Below are positions 1,318 through 61,807 of a stretch of DNA of 64,000 bases, piece by piece (within the stretch, counting starts at the first letter, position 1; the number at the start of each line of letters is the position of its first letter). Origin of the DNA: an uncultured Chloroflexia bacterium (GTDB lineage: Bacteria; Chloroflexota; Ktedonobacteria; Ktedonobacterales; Ktedonobacteraceae); assembly GCA_963791835.1 (NCBI GenBank), contig CAWBTV010000007.1, forward strand, positions 941,807 through 1,005,806. The letters are read 5' to 3'. Made by a program: the position numbers and the translations under genes. The notes below the pieces were generated by a model, which searched no databases, had not been told where the DNA came from, and saw only the letters and a list, made by a program, of their open reading frames with translations.

Positions 1318-2992
1318 TACCAATTCTGCCACAATTTTGCCTGACAACATCACCAATGGCACACCACCACCGGGATGGGTGCTTCCTCCTACAAAGTAGA
1401 GATTACATATTTCGGATGTGTTGCCAGGGCGTGTGAAGGGTGCCATACGTGAGTTCGAGGAGAGGCCGTAGATTGAACCTGCATTCGCACCATATTTATC
1501 ATAGAAGTCCTGGGGGGTGAGCATAGTCTCACAGACAATATGCTCTCGCAGGTCGCTCAGGTCTACTTGTTTATAACTTGCGAGCAGGTCGAGAATACGC
1601 TCACGATATGCGGGTGCTTCGCGTTGCCAATCGCTTTTTGATGTGAGATAGGGCGCGTTGACCAGCACAAACAGGTTTTCGTGTCCTGGGGGTGCCTGTG
1701 TCGGGTCGCTACGCGTGGTAGCACAGACATAGATCGTTGGATTGTTCAAGGGTACATGGCGTTCAAACAGGTCGTCAAACTCGGCGTGATAGTCGTCGGA
1801 GAAAAAGATGTTGTGATGCGACAATTGCGGATACTGCTTATCGAGACCGAGCAGCAAGACAAAGCCAGAGCAGGACGGCTCTAGCTGTTCCAGGCGTTGC
1901 ACACGTCTTCTGTTGCGTATCGCTGGCGATAGCAGTTCGCGATGCGTTGTCACGACATCGCTATTGGCGATCACGATATCACTCCGTAGCACACGCCCGT
2001 CTGCCAGCACAACACCACGAGCAGTATTTCGCTCCACAAGAATACGCTGTACATTACAGCATGTCTCAATCGTGACATCCAATTCACGCGCAACTCGTTC
2101 TAATGCCTGTGCTACCGCATAGATACCACCACGCGGATACCAACCACCATCGGCAAGCTCAACATAGGGAATGATGCGATAGACTGAGGCAACTTGATAT
2201 GGTGAAGACCCGTTATAGGTTGCGTAACGATCAAACAACTGACGTAAGTGCTCATCCTCAAAAAAGTTGTGTACACTCTCATCTAAGGTCTGTGGTGAAA
2301 GGGCGGCAAGGACAGCTTTTAGACGCGAAAGGAGGGTGGAGGGGGGTATATTATTCGTAGGGACCAGATTTATCGCGTCCGTAGGCGATTTATCGCGCGA
2401 GATGCCTTCATGTTCATGTCGTTCTTTGTGTGATCTATAGGCGATAAATCGCCTACGGACGCGATAAATCTGGTCCCTACGACCATCTGGATGTCCTCGT
2501 AACACATAACGTACAAACGTCCTCAAAACATTCGAGCGGACTACCTAAGCTATGATAGAGAAACGGGTCTGCCGCAGCTTGAAAGATGTTATAAGCCGAA
2601 TCAAAGAAGTGCAAGAAGGTGGTGCCATCATGTAGATTGAGTTGTGCAAACTCCTGGGCTAGTCGCTCGTGGTCACGCCATGCATTGAGTATCAGGCCGT
2701 CATGATAAAAGTAACGGCATGTGATGTCGAGCGGAATCAGATCAAGATAGTCTTTGAGATTGCGTTGAGCCGATTGGAAGAGGTCTTCGAGGACGTAAGG
2801 CATGGTGATAAGTGATGGACCTGTATCGAAGCTAAAGCCGTCTATCTGGATAGAATTAAGTTTTCCGCCAACCTGTGCCTGTCGCTCTAAGATGGTGACA
2901 TGATGACCCTGTGCTGCTAAGCGAATGGCTGCTGAGAGACCACCAATACCCGCTCCTATGACGATAATGCTCTTATGTTTGGATGTAGACAC
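1303..2992 (-). pseudogene. CrtI/CrtD-family FAD-dependent carotenoid desaturase split into two ORFs by a 124-bp MITE (2357-2480)
   Basis: N-terminal fragment (2481-2992) has the Rossmann motif IIVIGAGIGGLSAAIRLA. The C-terminal fragment (1303-2356) has CrtI-like GGWYPRGG and a C-terminal GGSTHPGGG. The fragments are in different frames. Deleting exactly 2357-2480 restores one 521-aa ORF. Confidence 0.7.
2357..2480. mobile_element. MITE-like palindromic element, family A (GTAGGGACCnnTTTATCGCGTCC terminal inverted repeats), nested inner repeat
   Basis: Terminal inverted repeats gtagggaccagatttatcgcgtcc / ggacgcgataaatctggtccctac. The same termini recur at least 9 more times in the window. Confidence 0.75.
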
Positions 2993-3065
2993 GCTTGTTT
3001 ATACCTCGTTTGTTTTCGTTATTATAGTGATGTTATTATAGGTGATAAATGGGTAGGGGGTTTAT

Positions 3066-3818
3066 ATGATACCTGCACACAAATTTCCGCTCGGCGAATA
3101 TCTCGTCGAGGGCTTGATAGATGGCTCGTTCCGCAAATATTTTGACCGCATCCATTATCGGCAATATGGGACATATACGGATGAGCAACGGGCGTTACCG
3201 ATGATTATCTGTGCCAATCATTCGACATGGTGGGATGGCTATGTGGCGTTACTGGTGGCGCGTCAACTTGGTGTTGATCCGTATTTGATGATGGAAGAAG
3301 CACAGTTGCGCCGCTATTTCTTTTTTCGCTGGATTGGCTGCTTTTCGGTAGACCGACAGAATGCACGCTCAGCTATGCAGTCTCTGCAATACGCAGCCCG
3401 TATGCTTAAAGAGAAACAAGGACGTATGGTTTGGCTCTTTCCGCAGGGCGAGATTTCACCAAATGATCGTCGTCCGTTTGAATTTTTTACGGGTGCGGCA
3501 CATCTCGCACGCCTGACCACGACGAGTCTTGTTTATCCGCTTGCGATACGCATCGAATATCTCGCCGAACAACGACCTGATCTTTTTATTAGCCTCGGCG
3601 AACCCTTATGCGTTGATGCAGAGATGGCGCATACTCCTGGTTTCCTCAAACATTGTACGCATCAGCTAGAGGGTATGGTGACAGCCGAACTCGACCAGTT
3701 ACGTAGTGACATTGTAGCAGGGGATTACTCGTCCTTCACGTTGTTGATGCGTGGCACATCTTCGACAAACAGGATATTCGACTCGCTCTTACTGCGGAAA
3801 CAGATTGGCAGGCAGTAG
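3066..3818 (+). CDS. Lysophospholipid/PlsC-family acyltransferase (CruD-like carotenoid-glycoside acyltransferase candidate)
   Basis: HX4D acyltransferase motif NHSTWWD. Strong RBS GGGTAGGGGG upstream. Context with the CrtD-like and GT2 genes. Confidence 0.7.
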   Translation: MIPAHKFPLGEYLVEGLIDGSFRKYFDRIHYRQYGTYTDEQRALPMIICANHSTWWDGYVALLVARQLGVDPYLMMEEAQLRRYFFFRWIGCFSVDRQNARSAMQSLQYAARMLKEKQGRMVWLFPQGEISPNDRRPFEFFTGAAHLARLTTTSLVYPLAIRIEYLAEQRPDLFISLGEPLCVDAEMAHTPGFLKHCTHQLEGMVTAELDQLRSDIVAGDYSSFTLLMRGTSSTNRIFDSLLLRKQIGRQ

Positions 3819-3820
3819 AG

Positions 3821-5143
3821 ATGATGAGATTGTTCATAGAAAATGCCTGTAGGGGTCTAATTCATCACACCCTGTTGGCAATGAACCATGCCGGAGAATA
3901 TGGAAAACGTTTAATCAATATCTCACAAGTTTGTTTATCGCCAATAGGGTGTAATGAATTAGACCCCTACAGATACGTTGCCGCACTCGTACTTTGTATT
4001 CTTATCATCCTATTCGCTATCCTCATCATCAACCTGTTCACGTTTTATCGTCTACGACCTCATATTGAGACACAAAACACAGAACAGCCGCTTGTCTCTG
4101 TCCTGGTGCCAGCACGGGATGAAGCGCAATCTATCGAGCGATGTGTGCGTTCGTTGGTAGCCCAAACATATGAGCGATTAGAGATACTTGTATTGGACGA
4201 TCATAGTAGTGATGCGACGGCAACAATTGTGCAGAGCATCATGGATGAATTGCCTGTACAGCAACAAGGAAGGGTACGACTGTTGCAAGGCGAGGAGTTG
4301 CCGTTGGGATGGGGTGGCAAAAACTTTGCATGTCATCAACTGGCACAACACGCGACAGGGAACTATTTGTTTTTTACGGATGCTGATACTGTTCACGACC
4401 CTAAGATGATTGCATCCGTAGTTGATTGTATGCAAATCCGTAAGGTTGCATTGCTCACAGCACAACCAACCTATGAACTTGATAGTATAGGAGAACGTCT
4501 TGTCGTACCGCTCCTCACCTTTACCATTATGACGCTGCTTCCTGTGGCCCTTATTCCTGTGCGACCGGAGCCAAGTCTTGCTACGGGTAATGGACAACTG
4601 TTGTGTTTTGAACGTTCCGCATACGAACATATTGGTGGACATTCGTCGGTGAAGAATCGCATTTTGGAAGATGTGTTACTGGCACGTGCGGTCAAGGCGG
4701 CAGGCTTGCGTATGATTTTTGTGGATGCACAAGACCTTGTGCGTTGTCGCATGTATCGCTCGTTCGCGGAGGTCTGGTCGGGCTTCTCGAAAAACCTGTT
4801 CGCGTTTTATAACTATGCGTTACCCTTCGCGCTTATCGGACTTGTGCTAAATATCCTACTTTTTATTGTGCCAGCATTGCTCATTTTATCAGCCCTATTT
4901 ATACCATTCTCGTTTCCGACATTGCTTTTGGCGACAGGTGCCTATGCGCTTCCTGTCGTGATGCGCATGTTATTAACGCTGCGCTTTACACAGACGCAAC
5001 GAGGGTTGATGCTTTTGCTGTGTCTGCTGCATCCCGTTTCGATTGCGCTTGAATGCCTGATTTTGCTCAATTCGATACGCTGGCATTATCGTAAAGAGGG
5101 AACGGTGTGGAAGGGTCGGCAATATGTGACTTATCAGAAATGA
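3821..5143 (+). CDS. Family-2 glycosyltransferase with C-terminal multi-TM domain (CruC-like); true start uncertain because a MITE occupies the 5' end
   Basis: GT2 motifs VLVPARDE...LVLDDHSSD...FTDADT. Residues about 9-50 of the ORF are encoded by MITE D1, which contains an in-frame ATG at 3881. Confidence 0.7.
   Translation: MMRLFIENACRGLIHHTLLAMNHAGEYGKRLINISQVCLSPIGCNELDPYRYVAALVLCILIILFAILIINLFTFYRLRPHIETQNTEQPLVSVLVPARDEAQSIERCVRSLVAQTYERLEILVLDDHSSDATATIVQSIMDELPVQQQGRVRLLQGEELPLGWGGKNFACHQLAQHATGNYLFFTDADTVHDPKMIASVVDCMQIRKVALLTAQPTYELDSIGERLVVPLLTFTIMTLLPVALIPVRPEPSLATGNGQLLCFERSAYEHIGGHSSVKNRILEDVLLARAVKAAGLRMIFVDAQDLVRCRMYRSFAEVWSGFSKNLFAFYNYALPFALIGLVLNILLFIVPALLILSALFIPFSFPTLLLATGAYALPVVMRMLLTLRFTQTQRGLMLLLCLLHPVSIALECLILLNSIRWHYRKEGTVWKGRQYVTYQK
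3848..3969. mobile_element. MITE-like element, family D (GTAGGGGTCTAATTC terminal inverted repeats)
   Basis: gtaggggtctaattcat...atgaattagacccctac. Related copies at 15983-16130 and a remnant at 10963-10997. Confidence 0.7.
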
Positions 5144-5155
5144 ACACACGCTGAC

Positions 5156-5578
5156 CTAATTCTTCGTTCCATGAAGATGTTGTATCTCCTCTCGAATCTG
5201 GAAGTTCGCAAGCCGTGATTCTTGAAGCATAAAGTAAGCTCCTGCGAGTATCATACACATTCCGAGAATCGTTAGACTCACTGGAAGCCAGGTAAGCATA
5301 TCAGCAAAGTAGCGGTCTACTGCGATAGAGAGACAATCTAGTACCAAGATACCTACCGCGAGAAAGAAAGCGGTCACTGCTCGCTCTGCCAGCAGTGACC
5401 GCGAGGCATACCGATCAAGCCAACGTTTCGACATATCTTGCGTCCAGCCAAGCTTTCTCGTTTCCTCGTCAGACAATTGCAACATTGCTCTGGCACGATC
5501 AATAGCTCGTGCCAGTCGTTGAAGTGCCGTCGCCACAAGGGATGCAGAACCCAGAATCAAAAGAGCAGGTGTAATCAT
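5156..5578 (-). CDS. Small membrane protein (DUF2721-like), start uncertain
   Basis: ORF 5156..5803 trimmed to the internal Met (MITPALLILGSA) downstream of the preceding same-strand gene. Three predicted TM segments. Confidence 0.45.
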   Translation of the reverse strand: MITPALLILGSASLVATALQRLARAIDRARAMLQLSDEETRKLGWTQDMSKRWLDRYASRSLLAERAVTAFFLAVGILVLDCLSIAVDRYFADMLTWLPVSLTILGMCMILAGAYFMLQESRLANFQIREEIQHLHGTKN

Positions 5579-5624
5579 CGCGGATATGATGATGAGAGCA
5601 GGGGAATTTGTGTTATTCAACACC

Positions 5625-6206
5625 TCATTCTCCGCTAACCATATCAAAGAGAATTCCGATGGCCTTTTGTGCTGTTGGTTGCGAGAAATCGCCAGCCAAC
5701 TCTCCCGAAAGCGTTGCAATGGAGACGGTAGATGCTCCCACTTGCACAATACGACGAAGCGCAGCATCTTCCGTACGCCCACTAATTCCCGCGACTGCGT
5801 CAATCACAATAAACACACGATAGCCTAAATCGGAACCTGAAAGTGCAGGCAGTTGTACGGCAACTTCAGTTGCAGCCCCGGCAATCAAAATGGTTTTCCT
5901 CCCCGTCGCCTCAACAGCCTGTTTGATAGCCTGATTCTCGAATGAGTCGGCAGTGGTGCGATAGTAAATCGGCAGTTCTCCCAACCCCTGCGCGATTTCC
6001 GGCATAATCTGTGCCGGACTTCCGTCTTGCCCCTTGACTGCTGAAACAATCGCAGGCATTCCAAACAAATGTGCGAGCCGTGAAAGCGCAAGAACGCCCT
6101 TCTGTAACCTTGCATAGGGAACAGTGAGTGGCAGGTCGGCGATGCCTGCTTGCAAATCTGCGAACAGAACGAGTGTATCATTAACTTCTATTTTTGACTG
6201 CTTCAT
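5625..6206 (-). CDS. Isochorismatase-family cysteine hydrolase
   Basis: Isochorismatase-like fold signature (VLFADLQAG...ILIAGAATEVAVQ). ATG at 6206 preceded by AGGAGGAG. Confidence 0.7.
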   Translation of the reverse strand: MKQSKIEVNDTLVLFADLQAGIADLPLTVPYARLQKGVLALSRLAHLFGMPAIVSAVKGQDGSPAQIMPEIAQGLGELPIYYRTTADSFENQAIKQAVEATGRKTILIAGAATEVAVQLPALSGSDLGYRVFIVIDAVAGISGRTEDAALRRIVQVGASTVSIATLSGELAGDFSQPTAQKAIGILFDMVSGE

Positions 6207-6372
6207 ATTAATACTCCTCCTAGAATTAGAGATAAATCGTGGTCTACCTGTCATATCACCATCGCTCATCAAGCGATTGGTAAGAGCGATACTGCTGTAG
6301 ACATTCGTCATCGCGCACTTACATGATTATAGAATGAGGAAGACAAAGGCATCTTGGAAAAAGATGCTCTTT

Positions 6373-7248
6373 TTATGAGGAAATTGGTAAATTCTTGCTA
6401 TTCTGGCGCAGAAGCGTTTGAGGCGTTACACCAACTACGCGCTTGAAATAACGAGTAAAGTGGCTCTGATCAAAAAAGCCGACCTGCAGTGCAACTTCTG
6501 CAACGGACAATTTCCCTTGTAGCAACAAGCTCTTCGCGCGTTCAATTCGTGTATGCAGTATGTATTGATGAGGTGCCATACCAGTTGCTTGCTTAAAGGT
6601 GCGCGCAAAGTGGTAAGAACTCAGATTGGCAATAAAAGAGAGTTCCGCGAGGGTTAACTGATGGGCAAGGTTATCGTGAATGTACTCAATGACACGCTGT
6701 ATCACAATTCTTGAAGGATGACCTATTGCATCATCAATATTATGCTTCTGAACAGCATAACGACGTAGTACATGTGCCGATAATGCCGTTGCAAGTGCTT
6801 CGGCGTAAAGAGCAGAAGAGGCGACCATACCTGCATCAAGTTCTGCCTTGAGTGCCAACGCTATATGCTGTAATGAGGGATCTCGAAATTCCTTTTTACT
6901 TTCCATAATCTCGATAGGGTCGTAGCTTCCAAGGCTTTCTCCAGTCTGAGCTACAAGTGAGGGGTCGAGAAAGAGAAGTAAAAATTCTGTCTCATCCTGC
7001 CAACGTATCCAATGACGTGAAGATGCAGGATAGATCATCGCCTCGCCTTGTCCAGCATAACTGCTATACAAAGGACCACCATTTACACGCTTCTCAGTAT
7101 GAGACTCGTTGAGAAAAATACAAAAGGTATACTGTGGCGAGTAAAGTTCGCACTCCGCTGGCGGTTGACGATGATGCTCAATACTGATACCATTCCAGGT
7201 AGCACTTTGGGGCAATACAAGTGGTAACTGTTCATTCAGAGCCTGCAT
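6373..7248 (-). CDS. AraC-family transcriptional regulator
   Basis: C-terminal AraC HTH (SYHFARTFKQATGMAPHQY...FFDQSHFTRYFKRVVGVTP). Start set at the Met with upstream AGGA. Confidence 0.7.
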   Translation of the reverse strand: MQALNEQLPLVLPQSATWNGISIEHHRQPPAECELYSPQYTFCIFLNESHTEKRVNGGPLYSSYAGQGEAMIYPASSRHWIRWQDETEFLLLFLDPSLVAQTGESLGSYDPIEIMESKKEFRDPSLQHIALALKAELDAGMVASSALYAEALATALSAHVLRRYAVQKHNIDDAIGHPSRIVIQRVIEYIHDNLAHQLTLAELSFIANLSSYHFARTFKQATGMAPHQYILHTRIERAKSLLLQGKLSVAEVALQVGFFDQSHFTRYFKRVVGVTPQTLLRQNSKNLPISS

Positions 7249-7369
7249 ATTCCTGTATCCATTCTTTTCGTTGTGCTTCTGCACTGCCTTGCTATTTGCA
7301 GCAACTTCATCCTTGAACATCTCCGCAGGCTCCTTAGTGAATATAGCCACAAGGATGACGCAATCAACC

Positions 7370-7780
7370 TTACTTGGTATTCCGTTCTACGCTCGTACAC
7401 CACAAGGCCCATGAGATAAACACGGCTTGAAAGGGCAAGCGTCCCCACATGTAAATCGGTGAGTTCATGAAGCCACCTAGCTTGATATTTGCGACAGCTT
7501 GATAGACGTTGGCAGGAAAAATTCCGACAAGAAGCGCGACCAGGCCCCATGCCGATGCGCGTTGTACTTTGCGGTTGGGGATGAATAGGCCAACACCACC
7601 GAGAAATTCAAGGACACCTGTAATATAGAGTGCCTCACGCCGAAAAGGTAAGAACGGTGGAATGATTTTCAATTCCGCTTCACGCGCCGTAAAGTGCATG
7701 GTAGAGGCAAGAATAAAGAGAATACCCATTGTGAACCGTGCAAGTGTTTTCCATAGACGGGGTGAAGAGAGGTTACGCAT
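7370..7780 (-). CDS. DoxX-family membrane protein
   Basis: Four TM helices and DoxX-like sequence pattern. Confidence 0.6.
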   Translation of the reverse strand: MRNLSSPRLWKTLARFTMGILFILASTMHFTAREAELKIIPPFLPFRREALYITGVLEFLGGVGLFIPNRKVQRASAWGLVALLVGIFPANVYQAVANIKLGGFMNSPIYMWGRLPFQAVFISWALWCTSVERNTK

Positions 7781-8645
7781 ACAATTTTTTCCTTTTTATA
7801 AAAGATAATCCCACTAGAACCAGTCCAGCAAGTATACCAAGCAGTGCGGCCCAATAATAGCCGTGCGTGATATCGACCAGCCCAAACATAAAGAGGCTTG
7901 CGCCAAAGAGAATACGTGGCGTTAATAAAACAAGTCTATAAAATGGCAGGGAGACCGCAAGGGTCTCCCCTGCATTTTCGCGATACCCTCCATATAGGGG
8001 AGACCCTTGCGGTCTCCCTGTTTCCCGAAGTACTCTATCGACGAGTAAGAGTAGTATGAAGGCGACGACGAACCATGCCGCGAAATTTGCTAATGGCACA
8101 GCATAATAGTTGATAGGTCCGGGGGCAAGCCACTCCCAGTAGTGTTCCAGGTGGGCGGCGACAGGCTCAATTTCTAAGTCCAAGAGTGTCGCGAGTGCAG
8201 CACCCAATAATGCACCAGATACGCCAAGAGGCCGCTTTTCCGCACGTATCCAACCATAAGCCCCGAACACAATCAGTACCCACGCGAACATGACAGCCAT
8301 TGGGACTCCAACCGGCAGGCTGGGAAAAAGTACATCGGTATAACGATAAAGGCCAAAGGGAAAGCCTGTTCCTACCCCTATGGCCTCAACGATGTAAGAG
8401 AGAGTGATAACAAGCAAGCCTGCACATACACCACGCAGCCAACCATACTGTAAGCTTGCCGCCACAATGAGTAACATGCCTTCGAGGAAAAGCAGCGCAC
8501 TTCCAGCCCATGCCAGCGAAAAGGGCGGATGCACATCAAAGGCAACACCAGTTACAGCTATCGGATACGCAATACAAAATATGCCGAAAAGCACGAGAAA
8601 GATGCGTGGCCCCCATTTGAAGGTTGAATGTTGCTCAAATGTCAT
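7773..8645 (-). CDS. Polytopic membrane protein, possibly carotenoid 1,2-hydratase CruF-like (DUF422); contains an in-frame MITE (family E) insertion
   Basis: Seven or more TM segments. Sits in the locus with CrtD-, CruC- and CruD-like genes. Residues RETGRPQGSPLYGGYRENAGETLAVSLPF are encoded by repeat 7946-8019. Confidence 0.5.
   Translation of the reverse strand: MTFEQHSTFKWGPRIFLVLFGIFCIAYPIAVTGVAFDVHPPFSLAWAGSALLFLEGMLLIVAASLQYGWLRGVCAGLLVITLSYIVEAIGVGTGFPFGLYRYTDVLFPSLPVGVPMAVMFAWVLIVFGAYGWIRAEKRPLGVSGALLGAALATLLDLEIEPVAAHLEHYWEWLAPGPINYYAVPLANFAAWFVVAFILLLLVDRVLRETGRPQGSPLYGGYRENAGETLAVSLPFYRLVLLTPRILFGASLFMFGLVDITHGYYWAALLGILAGLVLVGLSFIKRKKLYA
7946..8019. mobile_element. MITE-like element, family E (two inverted copies of GGGAGACCGCAAGGGTCTCCC hairpin flanking a 24-nt spacer), translated in frame
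   Basis: Left 7946-7971 and right 7996-8019 are reverse complements. A single-hairpin relative lies at 52685-52749. Confidence 0.7.
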
Positions 8646-10033
8646 ACATTGCCACCCTGCACGGCTGCAATTCCTCGTGCATAGGCTGCTGTTTTTGTAA
8701 TGAGTGCAACTGCACCGTTGCTTGTGTCCAGAGCATAGAGCATACCATCAGAGTAGAATGTCGCAGTAGAGTTGCTAATCCAGGCTCCTAATTCAACAAA
8801 AAGGTCCGTCGAGTTTGCAAGCAATTGTGGCTTTCCCACAATTGGCTGTCCAGCAGAACTCCCGGTATGCACCATGTATACGGCATTGTGACGGTCAAAA
8901 GGAGTTTGGGCATCGCTCGAAAACACAATGTATAAGAGCGAGTGACTATCGGGTGCAAATGTCGGCGTTGTCACCCAATGATAGGCTGCGTTGTTACTAA
9001 GATCGTGCTGTTCGGGCAAAATCATGGATGTGTTTTGCAGTACAGGGTGATTAGCATCCGAAGAAACACCGATATGTGCAAGAGAAAGACTGTTTGCATA
9101 GTTGAGTGCCGAGATATCGCGTGGCACGCTTGAGTCATCGGTCGCAGGAACAACATCTTGCTTGGTCGAGTATAAAAGCGTCGTGCTATCAGGAGAAAGT
9201 GCCAATGGCCCCTGTGATGCATCGTCCGCAAGCAGTTCGAGTGGGTCTTCGAGAGGGGTAGTGGTGAGGCTCAGGCTCCACAAGCCATAATGTACAGCTT
9301 GATGGTCGCCTCGATCATCGGTAAGTAACAACGTCGAGTTTGGCTGTACCCCTTTGCCTTGCCAGAACGCAAAGACACGATAGCAGGGACAATCTGCTGC
9401 ATTATGTTGGTAAATTGGTGCGGATTTTTCTAACGGACCAACATAGAGCGTATTGTTACCAATCCCGTTCGCGGGTTCAGTACTCCATGCAACCGTTGTG
9501 CCATCGTTACTCAATATCATTGAAGTAATCACCTGCCCTGCTGGTAGCGTTGCAATTTGTTTCGGCATACCATTAAATATATCGGTGAGCCAGAGACCAT
9601 TGCCACTATAGAGAAGTTGACCCGAAGGCGTAATAAGTGGTGGGGCTGAGAGATTATAGATATAGCCAGGAGTTGTCAACACTGTCGCAAGTCCACCTGC
9701 AAGCGGAACAATAGAGATATTTTTAGGTTGCTGGTATACAACATATTTGTCCGTGGGAAGTGTAAGTTGTGGTGCTGCTGCCTGTCCAGGTGGGAGTAAA
9801 GGTCCAACATCTTTATCTGAATTGACAGTTGGCGTTGGACGAGGCACGGTACTCGTTCTGCGTGCTACCACCTGGGACAAGTTCCAGAATAACTGACCTG
9901 TAAAAAGCAAGAAAAGCATTCCAACAAGCACAAGTAACACAAATATTGCCTTTTTAGAAACAGGGCTTGAATGTGGTGATAATGGGAATGAAGCCTGTTC
10001 TGATGGAGGAGGGTTTTGTACTTGTTGTGTCAC
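8642..10033 (-). CDS. Membrane-anchored protein with TolB/PD40-like beta-propeller repeats
   Basis: N-terminal TM (IFVLLVLVGMLFLLF) followed by repeats such as LYSGNGLWLTD and TTLLYST. 4-nt overlap with the upstream gene. Confidence 0.5.
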   Translation of the reverse strand: MTQQVQNPPPSEQASFPLSPHSSPVSKKAIFVLLVLVGMLFLLFTGQLFWNLSQVVARRTSTVPRPTPTVNSDKDVGPLLPPGQAAAPQLTLPTDKYVVYQQPKNISIVPLAGGLATVLTTPGYIYNLSAPPLITPSGQLLYSGNGLWLTDIFNGMPKQIATLPAGQVITSMILSNDGTTVAWSTEPANGIGNNTLYVGPLEKSAPIYQHNAADCPCYRVFAFWQGKGVQPNSTLLLTDDRGDHQAVHYGLWSLSLTTTPLEDPLELLADDASQGPLALSPDSTTLLYSTKQDVVPATDDSSVPRDISALNYANSLSLAHIGVSSDANHPVLQNTSMILPEQHDLSNNAAYHWVTTPTFAPDSHSLLYIVFSSDAQTPFDRHNAVYMVHTGSSAGQPIVGKPQLLANSTDLFVELGAWISNSTATFYSDGMLYALDTSNGAVALITKTAAYARGIAAVQGGNV

Positions 10034-10058
10034 ACTACGTTCACTTTCTTCGCTTGGT

Positions 10059-10862
10059 TTATGCGGTCTGGTCGCCTTGAGCAGCCTGTTCTAGCTTCTG
10101 GACATGATGTTGCACAAAGGCAATCGTTTTGGCAAAGACCTCTTCGCGGTCATGGTCTTTCATGATGACATGATACGAACGATGGAATGTTACCAGATGT
10201 TTCTCTTGCGAACCGAGGAGACGGTAAATCGCGCGTCCATCTCGTGCAGGCACCACATGGTCACGCACCGAGGCCATGACGAGGGCAGGTGCGGTAATCT
10301 GTCTCAACTCGTTACGCAACCGAGGCAAGAAGCGAAGCATACTTTCAACGGGAGCCATCGGGGTCCAGCGATAGACATCGCGCGTATAACGACGCCGTGC
10401 CTCCGGGTCGCGTACATCTTCGCGCAATGTTGGTAACAAGGGAGTTACACGTTTCGCGAGTTGAATCATGGGCATCATCCATGGATGCATCGTGATGGGA
10501 GCACACATGGTCACAATACCGGCCACCTCTTCGTGTGCTGCGGCATGGAGACACAGGGCACCACCGAGGGAATGTCCGATCAGAAAGACAACATCACAGC
10601 GTTGCTTGAGTGCATGCAATTCTTCGCGTACCGCCTCAGCCCATTCAGGCCAACCAAGTGGCAACATATCCCGTACATGGCTTCCATGACCGGGTAGCAA
10701 GATATTTTCTGTCACCATCCCCTGTGCATAAAAAAGATCATTGAGTTCTTCCATATCATGCTTGCTTCCATTCAGCCCATGCACAAGCATAACACCAACT
10801 TTTAGCTTTGTGTTGGATGTCGTCTGTTGCTCCGTCTGTTGTAGTGGGGATGTGTTACCCAT
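10059..10862 (-). CDS. Alpha/beta-hydrolase (carboxylesterase/monoacylglycerol-lipase-like)
   Basis: Nucleophile elbow GHSLGG, with the HG oxyanion motif VMLVHGLNGS. Confidence 0.75.
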   Translation of the reverse strand: MGNTSPLQQTEQQTTSNTKLKVGVMLVHGLNGSKHDMEELNDLFYAQGMVTENILLPGHGSHVRDMLPLGWPEWAEAVREELHALKQRCDVVFLIGHSLGGALCLHAAAHEEVAGIVTMCAPITMHPWMMPMIQLAKRVTPLLPTLREDVRDPEARRRYTRDVYRWTPMAPVESMLRFLPRLRNELRQITAPALVMASVRDHVVPARDGRAIYRLLGSQEKHLVTFHRSYHVIMKDHDREEVFAKTIAFVQHHVQKLEQAAQGDQTA

Positions 10863-10962
10863 TTTCGTGTTCCCTTGTGTTTACATATCCGCCGCTATTC
10901 TATCTTATAGCATACCATATTGGATGCGTGAAATGCCCACTAGCCGCATACGATAATTAACG

Positions 10963-10997
10963 AATTGTAGGGGTCTAATTCATTAACCCCTACAATT
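10963..10997. repeat. Family D MITE remnant (solo terminal repeat gaattgtaggggtctaattcattaacccctacaattc)
   Basis: Shares the GTAGGGGTCTAATTCAT terminus with D1 and D3. Confidence 0.55.
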
Positions 10998-11112
10998 CAC
11001 GATCCATTCGTTACAGGAATAATTCCGCGTACATTTTTGGTTACATTAGTATGAACATCAGTCCTTATTTGTTGTACTTTTTCAGACAGAATGCTATATT
11101 TTTCCCATCCTA

Positions 11113-11182
11113 TAGGGACCGAGTTATCGCGTCCTTATAACACATGCAAGAACAGACAAGGACGCGATAAATCGGTCCCTAC
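11113..11182. mobile_element. MITE-like element, family A
   Basis: tagggaccgagttatcgcgtcc...ggacgcgataaatcggtccctac. Confidence 0.7.
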
Positions 11183-11213
11183 ATTTGACGCGCTCATTCT
11201 ATTAGGAGTTATT

Positions 11214-12350
11214 ATGAAATTTTCGACGAAAGCCATTCACGCGGGGCAAGAGCCAGACCCATCAACGGGCGCGATTATGACCCCCATTTATCAGACATCA
11301 ACCTATGCTCAGACGGGGATGGGAGAACATAAAGGGTTCGAGTACGCCCGTACAGGGAATCCAACACGGAGCGCATTGGAAGCATGTATCGCGGCCCTAG
11401 AGAACGGCACACATGGTCTTGCATTCGCAAGTGGTATGGCAGCCGAGAGCGCGGTTTTGAGCTTGTTGAGTGCTGGCGATCATATGATTTCCTGCGACGA
11501 CCTGTATGGTGGCTCATATCGTATCTTTGAACGCATCATGCGGCGTTATAATGTCGAAACGAGTTATGTTACGGCAGGCAACGTTGCGGAGTACGAGAAG
11601 GCTATTCGTCCCAACACCAAACTTATCTGGTTAGAGACTCCTACCAACCCACTACTGCGGCTTGTGGATATTCGTGCGGTGGCAGAGATAGCTCATCGCC
11701 ACAATCTGCTGCTCGTCGTAGACAACACCTTTTCAAGCCCCTACTTTCAGCAGCCCCTTGAACTAGGTGCGGACATCGTGTTGCACAGTACCACAAAATA
11801 TATCAATGGACATAGCGATGTCGTTGGTGGTGCTGTAGTTACCAGCAATGAAGAAGTCTATGAGGCTCTCAAGTTTCATCAAAATGCGGCTGGCGCGGTT
11901 CCTGGTCCTTTCGATGTGTGGCTCACCATGCGCGGTATCAAAACACTTGCGGTACGGATGCGTCAGCATGAAGAAAACGCGTATTCTGTCGCACGCTTCC
12001 TGATGGAACATAAGCGTGTAGAAAAAGTATATTATCCAGGCTTGCCATCGCATCCCGATCATGAGTTAGCCAAACAGCAGATGAGTGGCTTCGGAGGTAT
12101 GGTCTCCTTTCAAATCAAAGGAACGCTTGCCGATGTAGAGCAAGTGGTACGCCGTTTCAAGGTCTTCACCTTTGCCGAGAGTCTTGGCGGTGTAGAGTCG
12201 CTGGTATGTCATCCCGCGACCATGACGCATGGTTCCATTCCAAAAGATATTCGTGAAGCTCGTGGACTTGGTGACACCCTGCTACGCCTGTCTGTCGGTA
12301 TCGAGGATATCGAGGACATTTTGGGCGACCTTGAGCAAGCTTTAGCGTAA
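11214..12350 (+). CDS. Cys/Met-metabolism PLP-dependent enzyme (cystathionine gamma-synthase/beta-lyase family)
   Basis: MKFSTKAIHAGQEPDP...STTKYINGHSDVVGG (PLP lysine motif). The long ORF 11091..12350 is trimmed because its first 40 codons are encoded by MITE A2. Confidence 0.85.
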   Translation: MKFSTKAIHAGQEPDPSTGAIMTPIYQTSTYAQTGMGEHKGFEYARTGNPTRSALEACIAALENGTHGLAFASGMAAESAVLSLLSAGDHMISCDDLYGGSYRIFERIMRRYNVETSYVTAGNVAEYEKAIRPNTKLIWLETPTNPLLRLVDIRAVAEIAHRHNLLLVVDNTFSSPYFQQPLELGADIVLHSTTKYINGHSDVVGGAVVTSNEEVYEALKFHQNAAGAVPGPFDVWLTMRGIKTLAVRMRQHEENAYSVARFLMEHKRVEKVYYPGLPSHPDHELAKQQMSGFGGMVSFQIKGTLADVEQVVRRFKVFTFAESLGGVESLVCHPATMTHGSIPKDIREARGLGDTLLRLSVGIEDIEDILGDLEQALA

Positions 12351-12361
12351 GCAAATCCCTG

Positions 12362-12420
12362 TGCCAAAAAGCTATTGACTCAGCGTACATGTTGTACGCT
12401 GAGTCAATAGCTTTTTGGCA
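12362..12420. terminator. 59-bp perfect palindrome (28-bp arms) downstream of the PLP-enzyme gene
   Basis: tgccaaaaagctattgactcagcgtaca-tgt-tgtacgctgagtcaatagctttttggca. Confidence 0.7.
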
Positions 12421-12550
12421 TACTTCGTTACTTTTTGCTGATCAAACCGATGTATAATACAAAGGAACTATAATCTTTTCTTTCTACTATACTTTTCTAT
12501 TTCTAACTATCTTATTGACCCGTCTATATTCACGAGAGGCTCTTTCTCTA

Positions 12551-14260
12551 ATGATACAGCCCATCTTTCTTTCTACAAAGGGCATACGTCGATTGGTGCC
12601 AACCGCACTCACGATACTACTCTTGGGACTCGTCTTAAGTGCATGTGGTGGCAATGCTCAACTCCAACAACAAGCGACCACAAATAAAGCGTCACTTGAT
12701 ACGGCACTGACGCACGCAAAAGACATTGGTATACCGGACACGATGTTGCAACCCATTGTGCGTCAGGAGATGCAACTGAGTACGACCAATGCACCTGTCA
12801 CCTTGTTTAGCGATCAACCTGCGACGGACTATTATTCCAATCTTTCGCAGCGTTACCATATGCTCGCCATTCAAGTAAATGGCTTGATGACGCAGGCCAC
12901 CCAGCAATTTGATTATCAATCAACACTTGATTTGCAAGCATTCGAGAGTGTACTGGCAAAGCGTCAGGGGCAAGGATTTGTCGAGGCGAAGACATTTGCC
13001 GACCAATTGACCCAGGACCAGAAGTTACAGGCAAAAGCGCAGTATCCCAAAGATTACCTTGCCATTAGCGCAAGCGCGAAAAGTTCAGCACAGGCATTAC
13101 GACTGATGGGACCTGCCTTTGACAAACTCACGACACTGCAAAATACGATCAAGCAATTGCAATCCTCGCATCTCGATGTAACGGCGTTGAACCAGGAATA
13201 TCAGCTTGACGTTCAGCAGTTTCGCACGGCAACGAATTCAGATGGTTTTACACAAATTATTGACCAGTTGAATGCTCAGCTTCAAGAAACAACGACATTC
13301 TCAACGCAAGCCATTCCTTACGTTGGGGCCGCAAAGCTCAAACAACTCGGTAATAGTATTGACCAGATGAAGCAATATGGGCAAGATGTCAGCAGCTTCC
13401 AGAAAATGCTTACGACCGACCAAACAGCATTGAGTACCGCAAAGTCTCTCAGCGATTACCTGAAAGTGTCGGCGCAAATTGACACTGATGTTGCCTCTAT
13501 TCAAACACCGCTTATTAAAGGGCAAGCGAACTATCTCTTGACACAATTCCACCAAGAGGTTACAACGTGGGGCAATGCTCACCTGTATCATAATGCATTT
13601 GATAATAAAAACTACACTCAGGATTATGAATACGATCAGGCTGAGGGTTTCGGCTCCGATGCAGATGTAGCCGTGCAGTCAGCACAAACACCTGACGATT
13701 ATCAAGCCGCGATTGACCTGATTAACAATGACATGATGCATCTCAAAGCGATGGAAGCGGACTTAGCGGATACCACTCCCTGGAGTAAATCACATGCTAC
13801 TGATGTGCAATTGATGCAGCATTATGGCGTTATGACAGGTCCAACGGTTGTCATCTCGCTCATTGAGCAGACACTACGCTTTTATCAGGATGGTCAACTT
13901 GTCAAGGCTTATCAAATCACCTCCGGGCAATTCGATAAGCCATCACCTCCAGGCTTCTGGCATATCTTTGACCGCGAGTCACCTACGAAGTTCAAATCAA
14001 GCGAGCCAAAGGGATCGGCGTTCTGGTATCCAGACACAAAGATCAACTTTGCGATGGAATATCACGATGGCGGCTACTTTCTGCACGATAGCTGGTGGCG
14101 TGTGAACTACGGTGTGGGCACCAATTATCCACACTACGATACAGGTGGTGATGAGTCGTTTGCAGGAACTGGCAGTCACGGCTGTATCAATATGCAAGAA
14201 GATCAGATAGCATGGCTCTATGCCCATACGGGTTACGGCATGGCTGTTGTTATCTACTAA
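12551..14260 (+). CDS. L,D-transpeptidase (YkuD-domain) lipoprotein with long N-terminal domain
   Basis: Lipobox LVLSAC. C-terminal YkuD catalytic motif GTGSHGCINM. Confidence 0.75.
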   Translation: MIQPIFLSTKGIRRLVPTALTILLLGLVLSACGGNAQLQQQATTNKASLDTALTHAKDIGIPDTMLQPIVRQEMQLSTTNAPVTLFSDQPATDYYSNLSQRYHMLAIQVNGLMTQATQQFDYQSTLDLQAFESVLAKRQGQGFVEAKTFADQLTQDQKLQAKAQYPKDYLAISASAKSSAQALRLMGPAFDKLTTLQNTIKQLQSSHLDVTALNQEYQLDVQQFRTATNSDGFTQIIDQLNAQLQETTTFSTQAIPYVGAAKLKQLGNSIDQMKQYGQDVSSFQKMLTTDQTALSTAKSLSDYLKVSAQIDTDVASIQTPLIKGQANYLLTQFHQEVTTWGNAHLYHNAFDNKNYTQDYEYDQAEGFGSDADVAVQSAQTPDDYQAAIDLINNDMMHLKAMEADLADTTPWSKSHATDVQLMQHYGVMTGPTVVISLIEQTLRFYQDGQLVKAYQITSGQFDKPSPPGFWHIFDRESPTKFKSSEPKGSAFWYPDTKINFAMEYHDGGYFLHDSWWRVNYGVGTNYPHYDTGGDESFAGTGSHGCINMQEDQIAWLYAHTGYGMAVVIY

Positions 14261-14267
14261 TTTCCTA

Positions 14268-14321
14268 GAAAACATGGTATTGGTTGGTGCGTGAAGCACG
14301 TCAACCAATACCATGTTTTCT
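14268..14321. terminator. Palindromic terminator (20-bp outer stem plus inner gtgc-gtgaa-gcac hairpin)
   Basis: agaaaacatggtattggttg...caaccaataccatgttttct, directly after the ldt stop. Confidence 0.65.
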
Positions 14322-14332
14322 GTCCTATTGAT

Positions 14333-14362
14333 TTGACATATGAAGCGCATTTCTGCTATAAT
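14333..14362 (+). promoter_or_regulatory. Consensus sigma70 promoter for rpsT (-35 TTGACA, 18-bp spacer, -10 TATAAT) with about 90-nt structured leader
   Basis: TTGACA at 14333-14338 and TATAAT at 14357-14362. The leader contains hairpins ccgacggttcgtcgg and gcccggaacacgggc. Confidence 0.6.
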
Positions 14363-14450
14363 CGTTTGGCACTCAAGACCGACGGTTCGTCGGCATTTTT
14401 ATACAGAAAAGCCCGGAACACGGGCCGATTTCGGGGAGGATTTCTACCAC

Positions 14451-14717: not shown

Positions 14718-14789
14718 GTTTTTGCGTCCATTGCTCTCCGGCCTATTCTTCGTTCGCCGAGCACTGAGCGCATTAGGAGGATTTTAGGG

Positions 14790-15975: not shown

Positions 15976-15982
15976 TGCAATA

Positions 15983-16130
15983 AATACGAAACGTCCGTAG
16001 GGGTCTAATTCTATTACACCCTTGTGGCAATGAACAATCTTGGAAGAGAATGAGAATTGTTACAACATCCTCCCAAATTGTATATTGTTTACAGGGTGCA
16101 ATAGAATTAGACCCCTACGGACGTTTCGTA
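15983..16130. mobile_element. MITE-like element, family D with extended terminal repeats (ATACGAAACGTCCGTAGGGGTCTAATTC)
   Basis: Outer 28-nt terminal repeats are perfect reverse complements. The internal sequence is related to D1. Confidence 0.75.
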
Positions 16131-16137
16131 TCCTAAT

Positions 16138-48925: not shown

Positions 48926-49000
48926 AAAAGAGAAGAGAAAAGGGTGGGGGCAATGCATGAGAATCTCATGCATTGCCCCCACCCTTTTCTCTTCTCTTTT
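48926..49000. terminator. 75-bp perfect palindrome (36-bp arms) between two convergent stop codons
   Basis: aaaagagaagagaaaagggtgggggcaatgcatgag-aat-ctcatgcattgcccccacccttttctcttctctttt. Confidence 0.8.
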
Positions 49001-50241: not shown

Positions 50242-51243
50242 TTAAGTGTAAGAACGTTGCGCCTCACGAATGAAACGATAGGGATAAATGTCTTCTACCG
50301 CACTAGCCTCAGAAAGATGGTGTACCTGCTCCTCGCTTAAGGCCCAATCGACGGCCCCAAGATTGTCGTTCAGTTGTTCGAGTGAACGAGCACCAATAAT
50401 AGGAGCGGTAATGCCAGGAGTGCGCAGTAACCAGTTGAGCGCAATCTGGGCATAGGATTTACCAGTTTCTTTCGAGATAGCATCCATTTCGTCGATAACG
50501 CACCAGTTTTGCTCGGTTGCGCGGCGTTGCCAGTGCTCTTCCAGGCGTTCACCAGCTTGAGCAATGCGTGTGCCTTCTGGTGGTTGCTCTCCCTTTTTGT
50601 ATTTGCCGGAGAGGAACCCACCACCGAGTGGACTCCACGGGAGAACGGCGATATTTTCTTCACGGCACAAGGGCAGTATTTCGTAGTCAAGGTGACGCTC
50701 GACAAGCGAATATTGCGGCTGCAGCGAGACGATACGTTCAAAACTGTGTGTACGGCTCACGTGGAGTGCGTTCATAATTTGCCAAGCGGTAAAGTTTGAG
50801 ACTCCAATGTAGCGTACTTTTCCCTGACGCACAAGGTCGGTGAAGGCCGAAAGCGTTTCTTCCAGGGGCGTGGCAGCATCCCAACAATGCGCCTGATAGA
50901 GGTCGATATAGTCGGTACCCAACCGCCGTAAGCTAGCCTCGCAGCCCTCGATGATGTGCTTACGCGATAAGCCAACATCGTTTGGCCCTTTGCCCATAGG
51001 GAAACGCACCTTCGTTGCTAATACTAGTTCTCTTCGTCTCTCCCGAATGGCACGCCCTGTAATTTCCTCAGAGATGCCCTGTGAATACACATCTGCGGTA
51101 TCAAGAAAATTGCCACCAGCGTCTATAAAACGGGAAATGATGGCTTTAGATTGTTCTTCGTTTGCCTCTTTCCCAAAGGTCATGCAACCCAGACATAGCT
51201 CAGAAACTATAGTGCCTGTCGCACCTAAACGTCGCATTTGCAT
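50242..51243 (-). CDS. Aldo/keto reductase
   Basis: AKR signature (LGCMTFG, active-site [15 protein letters not shown]). Start at MQMRRLG with AAAGGAGAGG upstream. Confidence 0.8.
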
Positions 51244-51497
51244 AGTGTAGTGTCCTCTCCTTTGTCGCACATTTCTCTAATACACACGTTTGAAGCTATA
51301 TTTTCGTTCCTAAATGCCGTCTTTCATGGTTTTGTTTTTCTCTCCACCTTTTTGTGAACTAGCACTTGCAACATTCGAGAGAGTCCTGTTCTTGCAACCA
51401 TTCTGGTATGTATGAGGGCTACCTTGTTACGCAATTGTGTTCAATCCGTTGAGTAAGCAGGGGAAAAAATATTTAATAAGGGGATGCTAAAATATTT

Positions 51498-52673: not shown

Positions 52674-52684
52674 GCCCTTTTATG

Positions 52685-52749
52685 AAGATAAGAAAATAAT
52701 CGAACAGGAGACCGCAAGGGTCTCCTGTTCGATTATTTTCTTATCTTCT
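52685..52749. repeat. Family E single hairpin (CAGGAGACCGCAAGGGTCTCCTG) embedded in a 65-bp palindrome between convergent genes; terminator-like
   Basis: gaagataagaaaataatcgaacaggagaccgcaagggtctcctgttcgattattttcttatcttc. Confidence 0.7.
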
Positions 52750-60234: not shown

Positions 60235-60253
60235 CAGGGAACACATGCACATC

Positions 60254-60383
60254 GGTAGGGGCAGCAATTCATTGCGCCCAATGATGGGTTGGGAGGGGTT
60301 CGTGTCGGGTGAAGGAATTGTCGCTGATAGATTGCCCTTCCGCCGCCCCCATCTTTGGGCACAATGAATTGTTGCCCCTACCG
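60254..60383. mobile_element. MITE-like element, family B
   Basis: ggtaggggcagcaattcattgcgcccaatgatggg...cccatctttgggcacaatgaattgttgcccctacc. Confidence 0.75.
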
Positions 60384-60905: not shown

Positions 60906-61099
60906 TATAGCAACCTGTCCTTTCGTTCAGTGTTTTACGCTTCGGCTTGACATCTACCCTTGCTATGGCATACAACTACGGTGTGGGAAGGAACATACGC
61001 ATACACTTTGCCGAACGACGACGTTTTGTGCGTAGTGATTTACCCAAAGAATAAGAGGGGAACAACCCTCATAGTATAGTCGATTGAAGGAGACGTATC

Positions 61100-61717
61100 A
61101 TGGCCTTTGAATTACCACCACTGCCGTATGACTACAACGCATTGGAGCCATACATTGATACTCAAACCATGCAATTGCACCATGACAAACACCATCAAAC
61201 ATACGTGACGAACCTGAACAATGCATTGAAGGATTCCGAGTTCGCTTCATTGCAACCAGAGCAAGTACTGAGCCGCTTGAATGAAGTTCCCGACGCTGTA
61301 CGCGCGGCTGTCCGCAACAACGGCGGTGGTCATGTCAACCACACAATGTTCTGGCAAATCATGAAGCCAAATGGTGGCGGAGAACCAACGGGCGAGATCG
61401 CGAACGCCATTCAGTCTTCTTTTGGCTCGTTTGATGCCTTCAAGACCGCATTCAATGATGCTGGCGTCAAGCAATTTGGTTCTGGCTGGGCATGGGTTAC
61501 ACTTGGTCAGGATGGCAAGCTCCAGATTAGCTCGACTCCAAACCAGGACAGCCCTCTGCTGAATGGCGTCTATCCTATTCTCGGCAATGACGTATGGGAA
61601 CATGCCTATTATCTCAAGTACCAGAACCGTCGTCCAGAGTACCTCAGCAACTGGTGGAACGTCGTTAACTGGGACGAGATCAATAAACGCTACGCGCAGG
61701 CAAAAGGCGCGAAATAA
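61100..61717 (+). CDS. sodA: Fe/Mn superoxide dismutase
   Basis: [25 protein letters not shown]...DVWEHAYYL. Confidence 0.9.
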
Positions 61718-61739
61718 GCGTTTTTATCAACAAAATGTC

Positions 61740-61807
61740 GTAGGGACCACGTTTACGGCGTCCATAGGCAATTAATTGCCTATGGACGCCGTAAACGTGG
61801 TCCCTAT
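61740..61807. mobile_element. MITE-like element, family A variant (GTAGGGACCACGTTTACGGCGTCC termini)
   Basis: Perfect 68-bp palindrome-like element with the same GTAGGGACC...GGTCCCTA ends. Confidence 0.65.

Follow-up and report, generated by a model that had tools for sequence, protein, structure and literature searches.

The window analysed here, a 64-kb stretch of contig CAWBTV010000007.1 from an uncultured Chloroflexia bacterium of the family Ktedonobacteraceae (Chloroflexota), has a G+C content of 48.6% and carries, within and between genes such as a crtI-like phytoene desaturase gene, a glycosyltransferase open reading frame (ORF) and a cystathionine gamma-synthase-like gene, a population of short palindromic repeats that are the subject of this work. 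An earlier note, made from the sequence alone, had sorted these repeats into five families, A to E, and had likened them to miniature inverted-repeat transposable elements (MITEs). When the window was searched with the termini quoted for each family, with up to 2-3 mismatches allowed and dinucleotide-preserving shuffles as a control, all five families were recovered where that note had placed them (13 termini for A, 5 for B, 6 for C, 5 for D and 3 for E, against 0-0.02 in the shuffles), and independent inverted-repeat detection returned the same elements together with two divergent A-type dimers, at 2355-2482 and 61734-61813. Overall, about 36 units form 20 elements, 17 of which are inverted dimers. 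Ten elements are A-type (A0 to A8 and one A/B hybrid, two of the ten being degenerate or half copies), two belong to B, three to C and two to D, to which a 27-nt internally deleted D has to be added; family E, credited earlier with two copies, consists of one dimer and one single unit. The elements are indeed small palindromic repeats, although their sizes run from 27 to 148 bp rather than from 65 to 150 bp, and an Rfam scan of the window gave no match.

Folding of the units as single-stranded DNA (ssDNA) showed that, in families A, B, C and E, what had been taken for a terminus is a small imperfect hairpin with an unpaired GTAG in front of it. The family A unit reads GTAG-GGAC-CGAT-tt-ATCG-c-GTCC, that of family B GTAG-GGGC-a-GCAAT-tc-ATTGC-GCC, that of family C GTAG-TGAC-t-GGGC-ttgc-CCC-c-TGTCA and that of family E (G/A)TAG-GGGAGACC-cttgc-GGTCTCCC, and that of family D GTAG-GGGT...ACCC. 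The units of the first four families fold at -4.3 to -8.6 kcal/mol, their hairpins being mostly bulged or mismatched and their GTAG left unpaired, and the inner stem of family A shows some compensatory variants (CGAT/ATCG, CAAT/ATTG, TGAT/ATCA). Two opposed units and a spacer of 20-90 nt make up an element able to fold, as ssDNA or RNA, into one long hairpin, with GTAG pointing outward in the dimers of A, B and D and inward in those of C and E; where the two heads are alike, the folding energy of the dimer lies between -24 and -60 kcal/mol (z -8 to -16.6). Among 102 unique family A dimers from related genomes, lengths peak at 68-73 nt and at about 103-135 nt. Repetitive extragenic palindromes (REPs) are defined as palindromes of 20-50 nt that follow a conserved tetranucleotide, usually GTAG, and are often paired inversely (PMC8266576), and their dimers have GTAG either outside or inside, with partners 20-100 bp apart (PMC3733652). 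Since the units of the window match this published definition of GTAG REPs and of their dimers, we regard the termini as REP units.

The short-form dimers of family A are A1 (11112-11182, 71 nt), A4 (30138-30207, right head mutated), A5 (40049-40118, 70 nt, 20 nt past a stop codon; -24.4 kcal/mol, z -8.1) and A6 (44491-44566), the last in tandem with the half or degenerate dimer A7 (44596-44658), so that the tandem described earlier at 44491-44658 is as stated. The same goes for the side-by-side pair at 18686-18909, which joins A2 (18686-18747), a degenerate dimer whose left GTAGGGAC head is lost, to B1 (18781-18909), a long-form family B dimer that has a G-rich inner inverted repeat and a conserved spacer core, CGTGTCGGCAACG, and folds at -60.3 kcal/mol (z -13.4). 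This spacer core of B1 recurs in A3 (25228-25330), the long-form family A dimer of the window (-57.9 kcal/mol, z -14.5). The second family B dimer, B2 (60253-60383), is also of the long form and lies 18 nt past a stop codon. Two A-type dimers are more divergent: A0 (2355-2482) is a head-to-head dimer of a subtype of its own, built of GTAGGGACCAGATTTATCGCGTCC and an inner hairpin, GGCGATTTATCGC (-53.5 kcal/mol as ssDNA, z -14.7), and this subtype recurs in six loci of related genomes (L008, L027, L039, L094, L100 and L113; L numbers denote loci used for comparison); A8 (61734-61813; unit GTAGGGACCACGTTTACGGCGTCC, also found in L001 and L008) forms a loop-less palindrome with 40-bp arms that reaches into the flanks (AATGTC / GACATT) and folds at -47.3 kcal/mol (z -16.6).

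All three family C dimers have GTAG inside, with a unit of the form GTAG-TGACTGGGC-TTGC-CCCTGTCA, and follow genes closely: C1 (29240-29343) and C3 (54479-54580) each lie 24 nt past a stop codon, and C2 (50116-50208; -43.4 kcal/mol, z -15.4) lies 33 nt past the stop of gene 50242-51270(-). Family D, with GTAG outside, comprises D1 (3847-3972, 126 nt), D3 (15984-16131), which sits between convergent genes inside an extra palindromic flank of 11-13 nt (ACGAAACGTCC / GGACGTTTCGT), and the internally deleted D2 (10967-10993), of which two GTAGGGGT heads and a short centre are left. In family E, E1 (7947-8020; -32.2 kcal/mol, z -11.7) is a dimer with its GTAG/ATAG heads inside; in the window these heads read ATAG and GCAG, and the family E copies of the metagenome locus L125 have the full GTAG. 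At E2 (52684-52748), between convergent genes, one lone family E unit (52707-52725) caps a perfect palindrome that has 30-bp arms and is otherwise unique. Arms within the window can be identical, as between C1 and C2 (32/32 positions) and between the family B arms (25/25).

The A/B hybrid dimer at 46828-46949, in a divergent intergenic region, has an A head on the left, a B head on the right and the shared long-form spacer, each REP folding into a separate hairpin. As noted earlier, families A and B do share an internal core, CGTGTCGGCRACG, of which the window contains three copies (in A3, B1 and the hybrid) when 0.14 are expected. Long-form dimers share one build, with REPs on the outside, an inverted repeat rich in G further in and a spacer whose core is conserved. 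Their inner part is combined with A heads (A3 and, outside the window, L006, L010, L027, L049, L068 and L106), with B heads (B1 and, outside the window, L014, L037 and L062) or with mixed or B-flavoured arrangements (the hybrid of the window, L057 and L065). Since the inner part recurs with A, B and mixed heads across genomes, the hybrids form a recurrent class, and heterodimers and hybrid dimers have likewise been reported for the REPs of Stenotrophomonas and Enterobacteria (PMC3733652). Hybrids of this kind recur in L057 and L065; they belong to a regular REP class and give no evidence of unusually active recombination, although the window alone had suggested an actively recombining population.

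The flanks of the elements were compared across the window's relatives, and no target-site duplication emerged in family A (102 unique dimers), B (9), C (9), D (24) or E (5), direct-repeat matches equalling the shuffled expectation (for family A, two against 1.0 at k=3 and one against 0.7 at k=4; for family D, 0/24 at k=4). A 4-nt duplication, AATT, had been considered at D2 and was rejected, as it finds no support in the other 24 family D dimers. What the family A flanks do show is a consensus, CT|GTAGGG...CCCTAC|AG, in which conservation runs two bases past GTAG, 66 of the 102 dimers having T at position -1 and 52 having C at -2. The TnpA-REP protein of E. coli, an enzyme of the class known as REP-associated tyrosine transposases (RAYTs), cleaves at a CT beside the REP, and GTAG is thought to select the site (PMC8266576); the conserved CT|GTAG flank agrees, if indirectly, with cleavage of this kind.

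With respect to genes, intergenic regions hold 17 of the 20 elements, and 13 of these 17 lie within 45 nt past a stop codon. Two go as far as to supply the stop: the GTAG of A3 provides the TAG of gene 24056-25231 (at 25228-25231) and that of A6 the TAG of gene 43562-44494 (at 44491-44494). On the 5' side of a gene, A1 separates the ribosome-binding site of the cystathionine gamma-synthase-like gene from a conserved promoter-like box, a position that places it in the 5' untranslated region (UTR). The elements had been called non-coding, which applies to most of them but not to the three located within long ORFs, which continue through them in frame without a stop: A0 in a length-variable linker of the crtI-like gene, D1 in the 5' part of the glycosyltransferase ORF 3821-5143, and E1 in a loop of the membrane protein, of carotenoid-biosynthesis type, that ORF 7773-8645(-) encodes. 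Both phenomena have precedents (PMC3733652): GTAG-derived stops are known, as are intragenic REP dimers that encode 20-30 residues in frame.

The crtI-like gene (1303-2992, minus strand) deserves a few remarks of its own. An exact GTAG...CTAC excision of 124 nt that would restore its frame at A0 was entertained and dropped, as the orthologues show it to be a coincidence: the native frame does not change across A0, and the break in frame comes from a separate extra A near 2535. This extra A, at about 2530-2540, is apparent by comparison with L125, L126 and L127 (GAATGT against GATGT in L126) and shifts the phytoene-desaturase-like frame just upstream of A0, either as a pseudogene mutation or as a sequencing error. 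More distant relatives (L128-L135) have a long Pro-rich insertion at A0's place in the linker (e.g. L128 10450-10640), with REP-head-like fragments, CCCCTACGCGGGACC and CACGTCCTAC, and several metagenome variants with a frame-shifting 28-nt indel; these fragments may be decayed intragenic REPs.

The elements are by no means confined to the window. In a scan of species-representative genomes, the family A terminus GTAGGGACCGATNNATCNCGTCC was present in at least 113 stretches, and the matches listed all come from about fifteen Ktedonobacteraceae/Ktedonobacterales assemblies, three of them labelled "uncultured Chloroflexia" only. About 0.8 Mb of these relatives' loci, fetched solely for their family A matches, hold 243 A-type units and also 17 matches to B, 9 to C, 39 to D and 12 to E, so that all five families appear to be lineage-wide. 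One candidate for a larger composite structure, a 4.7-kb unit bounded by inverted REPs in L076 (CAXUHF010000193.1), was rejected as a palindromic assembly artefact, the whole contig being a mirror image with identical ORF sets on both strands.

Three of the loci compared are syntenic to positions 1-18,600 of the window, namely L030, the closest relative among them (84-92% nucleotide identity), and the metagenome loci L125 and L126 (75-80%), and they allow insertion sites to be compared one by one, a comparison that the earlier note had called for. L126 is devoid of A0, D1, D2, A1 and E1 at the orthologous sites, the absence of A1 being clean; A0 is also missing from L125, and D2 from L125, L126 and L030. 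At the D1 site, L126 is empty and L125 has a family C dimer at exactly that place; at the E1 site, the orthologues in L125 and L126 hold an unrelated loop of 16-23 aa. A1 is present at the same place in L030, yet decaying there (in a relative 84% identical). Conversely, the site at 14,260-14,340 is taken by a family C dimer in L030 and by unique palindromes, different from each other, in the window and L126. This site-by-site gain and loss, together with the identical copies within the window, shows a turnover of the elements on the timescale of species divergence. Alongside these sites, L125 (about 2800-3060, orthologous to window 12351-12413) contains an additional REP family that has no member in the window, with unit TATAGTAGGGGCGTACCCTTGTGGTCGCCCG and a GTAG-inside dimer that fills the slot of the unique palindrome at 12362-12420. 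The syntenic segments also differ by about 2.3-2.6 kb that is missing from L125 and L126 and corresponds to window 5144-7391, hence a lineage-specific insertion or deletion; from a reading of the translations, we take this segment to hold an isochorismatase-like ORF and an AraC-type regulator.

A partner transposase bordered by matching repeats, which the earlier note had proposed to look for, turned up in the relatives. The ORF at 1073-1579(-) of L006, encoding 159 aa, is bordered by three long-form family A dimers, two in tandem on one flank and the third on the opposite flank. It was first picked up with an approximate E. coli RayT probe, a sequence excluded from the alignment behind the structure model. 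Its product scores 23.3 bits against Pfam Y1_Tnp (PF01797; cutoff 23) and 61.6 bits (E 7.5e-17) against the NCBIfam model of REP-associated tyrosine transposases, REP_Tyr_transpos (NF047646), and has 478 homologues, many of them named RayT by the Joint Genome Institute (JGI). The HUH motif (H81, H83) and the tyrosine (Y149) are invariant in 40 homologues. The AlphaFold model (pLDDT 87) finds its best match in the Protein Data Bank (PDB) in 4ER8, the structure of TnpA-REP bound to a REP hairpin (E 8.5e-8, TM 0.61), followed by structures of the TnpA of IS200/IS605 insertion sequences (ISs). The protein associated with the repeats is thus a Y1 HUH enzyme of the TnpA-REP type.

Ten more RAYT loci were then fetched by protein identity alone, independently of the repeats, and REP units flank nine of the ten, GTAG-headed in eight cases and GGAG-headed in one. 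The variant found beside the gene changes with the RAYT lineage: family A flanks P0004 (P numbers denote RAYT proteins), family B flanks P0019 on both sides, the A0 subtype flanks P0023 (L148), GTAGGGACCAATTGATTGCGTCC flanks P0008, GTAGGGACAGCTTTAGCCCGTCC flanks P0009 in seven or more copies, GTAGGGGCCGATTTATCG flanks P0051, P0096 and P0103, the GGAG-headed variant flanks P0014, and P0044 has none. Sorted by locus, RAYT genes stand beside cognate REPs of family A in L006 and L114, of the A0 subtype in L148 and of family B in L123, and beside further REP variants in L118, L119, L120-122 and L146. The arrangement is that of the "REPtron", in which RAYTs are specific to their repeats and which has been described in other phyla (PMC2817692, PMC3733652).

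From the anatomy of the units, their distribution across genomes, the linkage of REPs to RAYT genes and the co-variation of the two in relatives, the lack of target-site duplication and the gain and loss at orthologous sites, we consider it very probable that the repeats of the window are GTAG-tagged REPs, mostly in the form of inverted dimers (REP doublets forming hairpins, or REPINs, akin to the units of bacterial interspersed mosaic elements, or BIMEs), of a Ktedonobacteraceae genome. If these REPs behaved as those of the E. coli, Stenotrophomonas and Marinomonas systems (PMC8266576), their RAYT would be a domesticated HUH/Tyr transposase whose single-copy gene lies elsewhere in the genome, with its own cognate REPs on its flanks. 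Such an enzyme would recognise the folded REP on ssDNA through its hairpin and GTAG, cut at the nearby CT dinucleotide and rejoin the strands, and this cutting and rejoining would copy or remove REP dimers with no target-site duplication. Each RAYT lineage would be served by one REP variant, and the existence of several lineages with co-evolved REP heads would explain both the coexistence of families in one genome and the hybrid dimers. By the same analogy, Ktedonobacterial RAYTs would cleave and mobilise the REPs found here, and families C, D and E would have partners too. As for transcripts, most copies are located 8-45 nt past stop codons and are therefore probably transcribed; the dimers would probably act as terminators or as mRNA-stabilising hairpins, in slots that unique long palindromes fill elsewhere in the lineage.

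Several points weigh against this interpretation. The window itself encodes no RAYT, according to a tblastn search with 120 RAYT homologues, and a comparison of its ten least obvious, unassigned ORFs with Pfam gave no transposase domain, which bears out, for RAYT-type proteins and for these ten ORFs, the earlier remark that the window has no transposase; cognate RAYTs are seen in related genomes only. Among the RAYT loci of relatives that were examined, none is a partner for family C, D or E, and one locus with a RAYT homologue, L147, lacks REPs in its vicinity. The profile scores of the L006 protein are marginal (Pfam 23.3 against 23; NCBIfam 61.6, below the cutoff of 80). The lone family D unit folds weakly (-1.7 kcal/mol, z -0.35), and family D is closer in behaviour to a simple inverted repeat ending in GTAG, so that its membership among REP units is doubtful. 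Three elements are intragenic, which is unusual for "extragenic" palindromes, though documented (PMC3733652). Finally, direct mobilisation of a REP by a RAYT in vivo has been demonstrated in no organism (PMC8266576).

This last point could favour a reading in which the repeats are structural elements of the host and nothing more, that is, terminator or mRNA-stabilising hairpins multiplied by recombination or gene conversion, with an incidental linkage to RAYT genes. Most copies do lie just past stop codons, in the slots that unique long palindromes otherwise occupy in the lineage, and RAYT genes behave as single-copy housekeeping genes whose REPs have never been directly seen to move (PMC8266576). 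An incidental linkage is nonetheless difficult to reconcile with REPs at nine of ten independently fetched RAYT loci and with a variant that changes from one RAYT lineage to the next. Moreover, near-identical copies occur in unrelated contexts, ORFs and a 5' UTR included, which suggests insertion rather than local evolution, and a conserved unpaired GTAG with its CT flank serves no role in a terminator. We accordingly hold this first alternative to be very improbable.

The flanking protein raises a second alternative, in which the repeats would be palindrome-associated, non-autonomous derivatives of IS200/IS605 elements, moved by a multi-copy IS of the TnpA/TnpB kind and not by a domesticated RAYT. 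The Y1 HUH fold, the rank of ISDra2 and IS608 just below 4ER8 among the structural matches, and the lack of target-site duplication common to both kinds of element would fit such an origin. The ends of these ISs, though, are two different subterminal hairpins and not GTAG-headed inverted copies of one unit; the RAYT loci examined have no tnpB-like gene beside the Y1 gene; the proteins match the REP-associated model NF047646 and resemble TnpA-REP best in structure; and the Y1 genes, in the few loci concerned, occupy an ordinary chromosomal context, P0004 being at the same place in all contigs shown. On these grounds, a derivation from IS200/IS605 seems very improbable to us.

We likewise see very little chance that the repeats are classical MITEs, as first supposed by likeness to Correia elements, i.e. 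deleted derivatives of a DDE insertion sequence whose full-length version elsewhere would mobilise them in trans through their terminal inverted repeats (TIRs): their small size (within 65-150 bp), inverted ends, high copy number and lack of coding capacity, and a family D unit that has little hairpin potential of its own and resembles a plain TIR, would suit that origin. Against it, no family has a target-site duplication, the supposed TIRs of four families (A, B, C and E) each consist of GTAG and a hairpin, the Y1/HUH RAYT of relatives is the one transposase-like gene that the repeats were seen to flank, and no recurrent transposase accompanies the elements in about 0.77-1.1 Mb of related loci. 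Recurrent protein clusters near the elements had been screened as candidate transposases and turned out to be ordinary paralogue families (ABC, WD40, P450, SDR and others).

Besides GTAG-tagged REPs, the window contains about ten unique, perfectly complementary palindromes at the 3' ends of genes, with arms of 15-37 bp and loops of 1-15 nt (1243-1317, 12362-12420, 14267-14321, 27792-27858, 32780-32847, 36007-36041, 45150-45215, 48926-49000 and 63688-63753 among them). Orthologous sites in L125 and L126 hold perfect palindromes as well, of unrelated sequence, and these palindromes resemble terminator hairpins whose perfect pairing is maintained as the sequence changes. When arms of 20 bp or more and loops of 8 nt or less are required, perfect palindromes number 12.5 per 100 kb in the window; the figure is 4.2 for other Ktedonobacteraceae loci (762 kb) and 0 for distant crtI-gene loci (70 kb). 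The palindrome at 1243-1317 spans the last four codons and the stop of two convergent genes, 355-1257(+) and 1303-...(-), and as it covers both gene ends, both proteins end in MQNI; it seems that an inverted copy of one gene's end has replaced the C-terminus of the other.

The two kinds of palindrome meet at several places, since REP units are found at the tip of or within such palindromes in E2, A8 and D3, and palindromic flanks are enriched in family D (6/24 dimers against 0.94 expected, k=4). More generally, gene 3' ends in the stretches examined commonly have either a REP dimer or a unique perfect palindrome of 15-37 bp. It is tempting to see in REP dimers one face of a lineage-wide "perfect hairpin" system at the gene ends of Ktedonobacteraceae, an idea that we advance as a speculation and judge rather unlikely. 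If such a system existed, RAYT-mediated insertion could possibly target hairpin tips; alternatively, arm-to-arm copying, for instance by template switching, could keep palindromes perfect and extend them, and would then overwrite the last codons of convergent genes, as at 1243-1317.

From the perspective of genome annotation, the identification of GTAG-tagged REPs gives a very abundant repeat class of the large and poorly studied soil genomes of Ktedonobacteria its correct label, that of RAYT-tied REPs and not of MITEs. It also has consequences for gene calling in these genomes, where REPs inflate the 5' ends of ORFs, supply stop codons and, in three cases, lengthen proteins by 25-42 residues. 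Besides, the relatives offer at least seven REP head variants, each beside a different RAYT lineage (41-62% identity), which amount to a natural co-variation series usable for working out how RAYTs recognise their hairpins, a recognition tested experimentally for only three RAYT/REP pairs so far (PMC8266576). The type of element is a known one, and the novelty lies in its occurrence in Ktedonobacteraceae, a soil lineage of Chloroflexi: as the earlier note had surmised, these repeats seem to be undescribed in the lineage, Ktedonobacteria receiving no mention that we could find in the REP/RAYT literature or its supplements. Hybrid dimers and tandem, nested and intragenic copies are all known for REPs elsewhere (Di Nocera 2013), and each structural peculiarity listed for the window has a published counterpart among GTAG REPs. 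The result thus leaves the current understanding of REPs unchanged and should come as no surprise to a specialist.

It remains to situate these elements among known systems. With the Correia elements of Neisseria, a MITE family, they share a similar size, inverted ends, a high copy number, an intergenic location and a likely co-transcription with neighbouring genes. Correia elements have true TIRs and a TA target duplication, when the Ktedonobacterial elements show no duplication and have ends that consist of GTAG and a hairpin and are tied to a tyrosine (HUH) transposase. The comparison with the palindromic elements of Rickettsia (RPEs), also made in the earlier note, is apt in one point, since some of these small palindromic repeats are translated as in-frame insertions in protein-coding genes and A0, D1 and E1 behave likewise, and it stops there: RPE-4 and RPE-6 are classed as CGTC-type REPs with no associated transposase (PMC3733652), and the present elements, from a Ktedonobacteraceae host, have GTAG and not CGTC heads, are linked to RAYTs, have no sequence similarity to RPEs and are mostly intergenic. 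IS200/IS605 elements resemble the system found here in transposase fold, HUH/Tyr chemistry, recognition of ssDNA hairpins with a 5' tetranucleotide guide and lack of target duplication (PMC8266576); in these ISs, the gene and two different end hairpins move jointly as a multi-copy unit, unlike the numerous short repeats and the repeat-flanked Y1 gene, in an ordinary chromosomal context, described above.

The closest relatives are the GTAG REP/BIME/REPIN elements and their RAYTs known as REPtrons in E. coli, Pseudomonas and Stenotrophomonas, and GTAG REPs have already been reported in two other Chloroflexi, Thermomicrobium roseum (GTAG-23) and Chloroflexus aggregans (PMC3733652, PMC2817692, PMC8266576). 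From these known systems, the Ktedonobacterial one departs by its new stem and loop sequences, by a host class absent from the surveys consulted, by short RAYTs (about 156-175 aa) that are some 17% identical to E. coli TnpA-REP over the structural alignment, and by families C, D and E, for which no RAYT was found, the family D unit moreover folding weakly. Shared with them are the following: an unpaired GTAG with an imperfect hairpin; inverted dimers with GTAG outside or inside, some of them within longer palindromes; structured and conserved spacers in the GTAG-outside dimers; heterodimers or hybrids, tandem clusters and several families per genome; sites just past stop codons, a TAG supplied by GTAG and occasional in-frame intragenic copies; a CT beside GTAG, with no target-site duplication; and RAYT genes flanked by their own REP variant.

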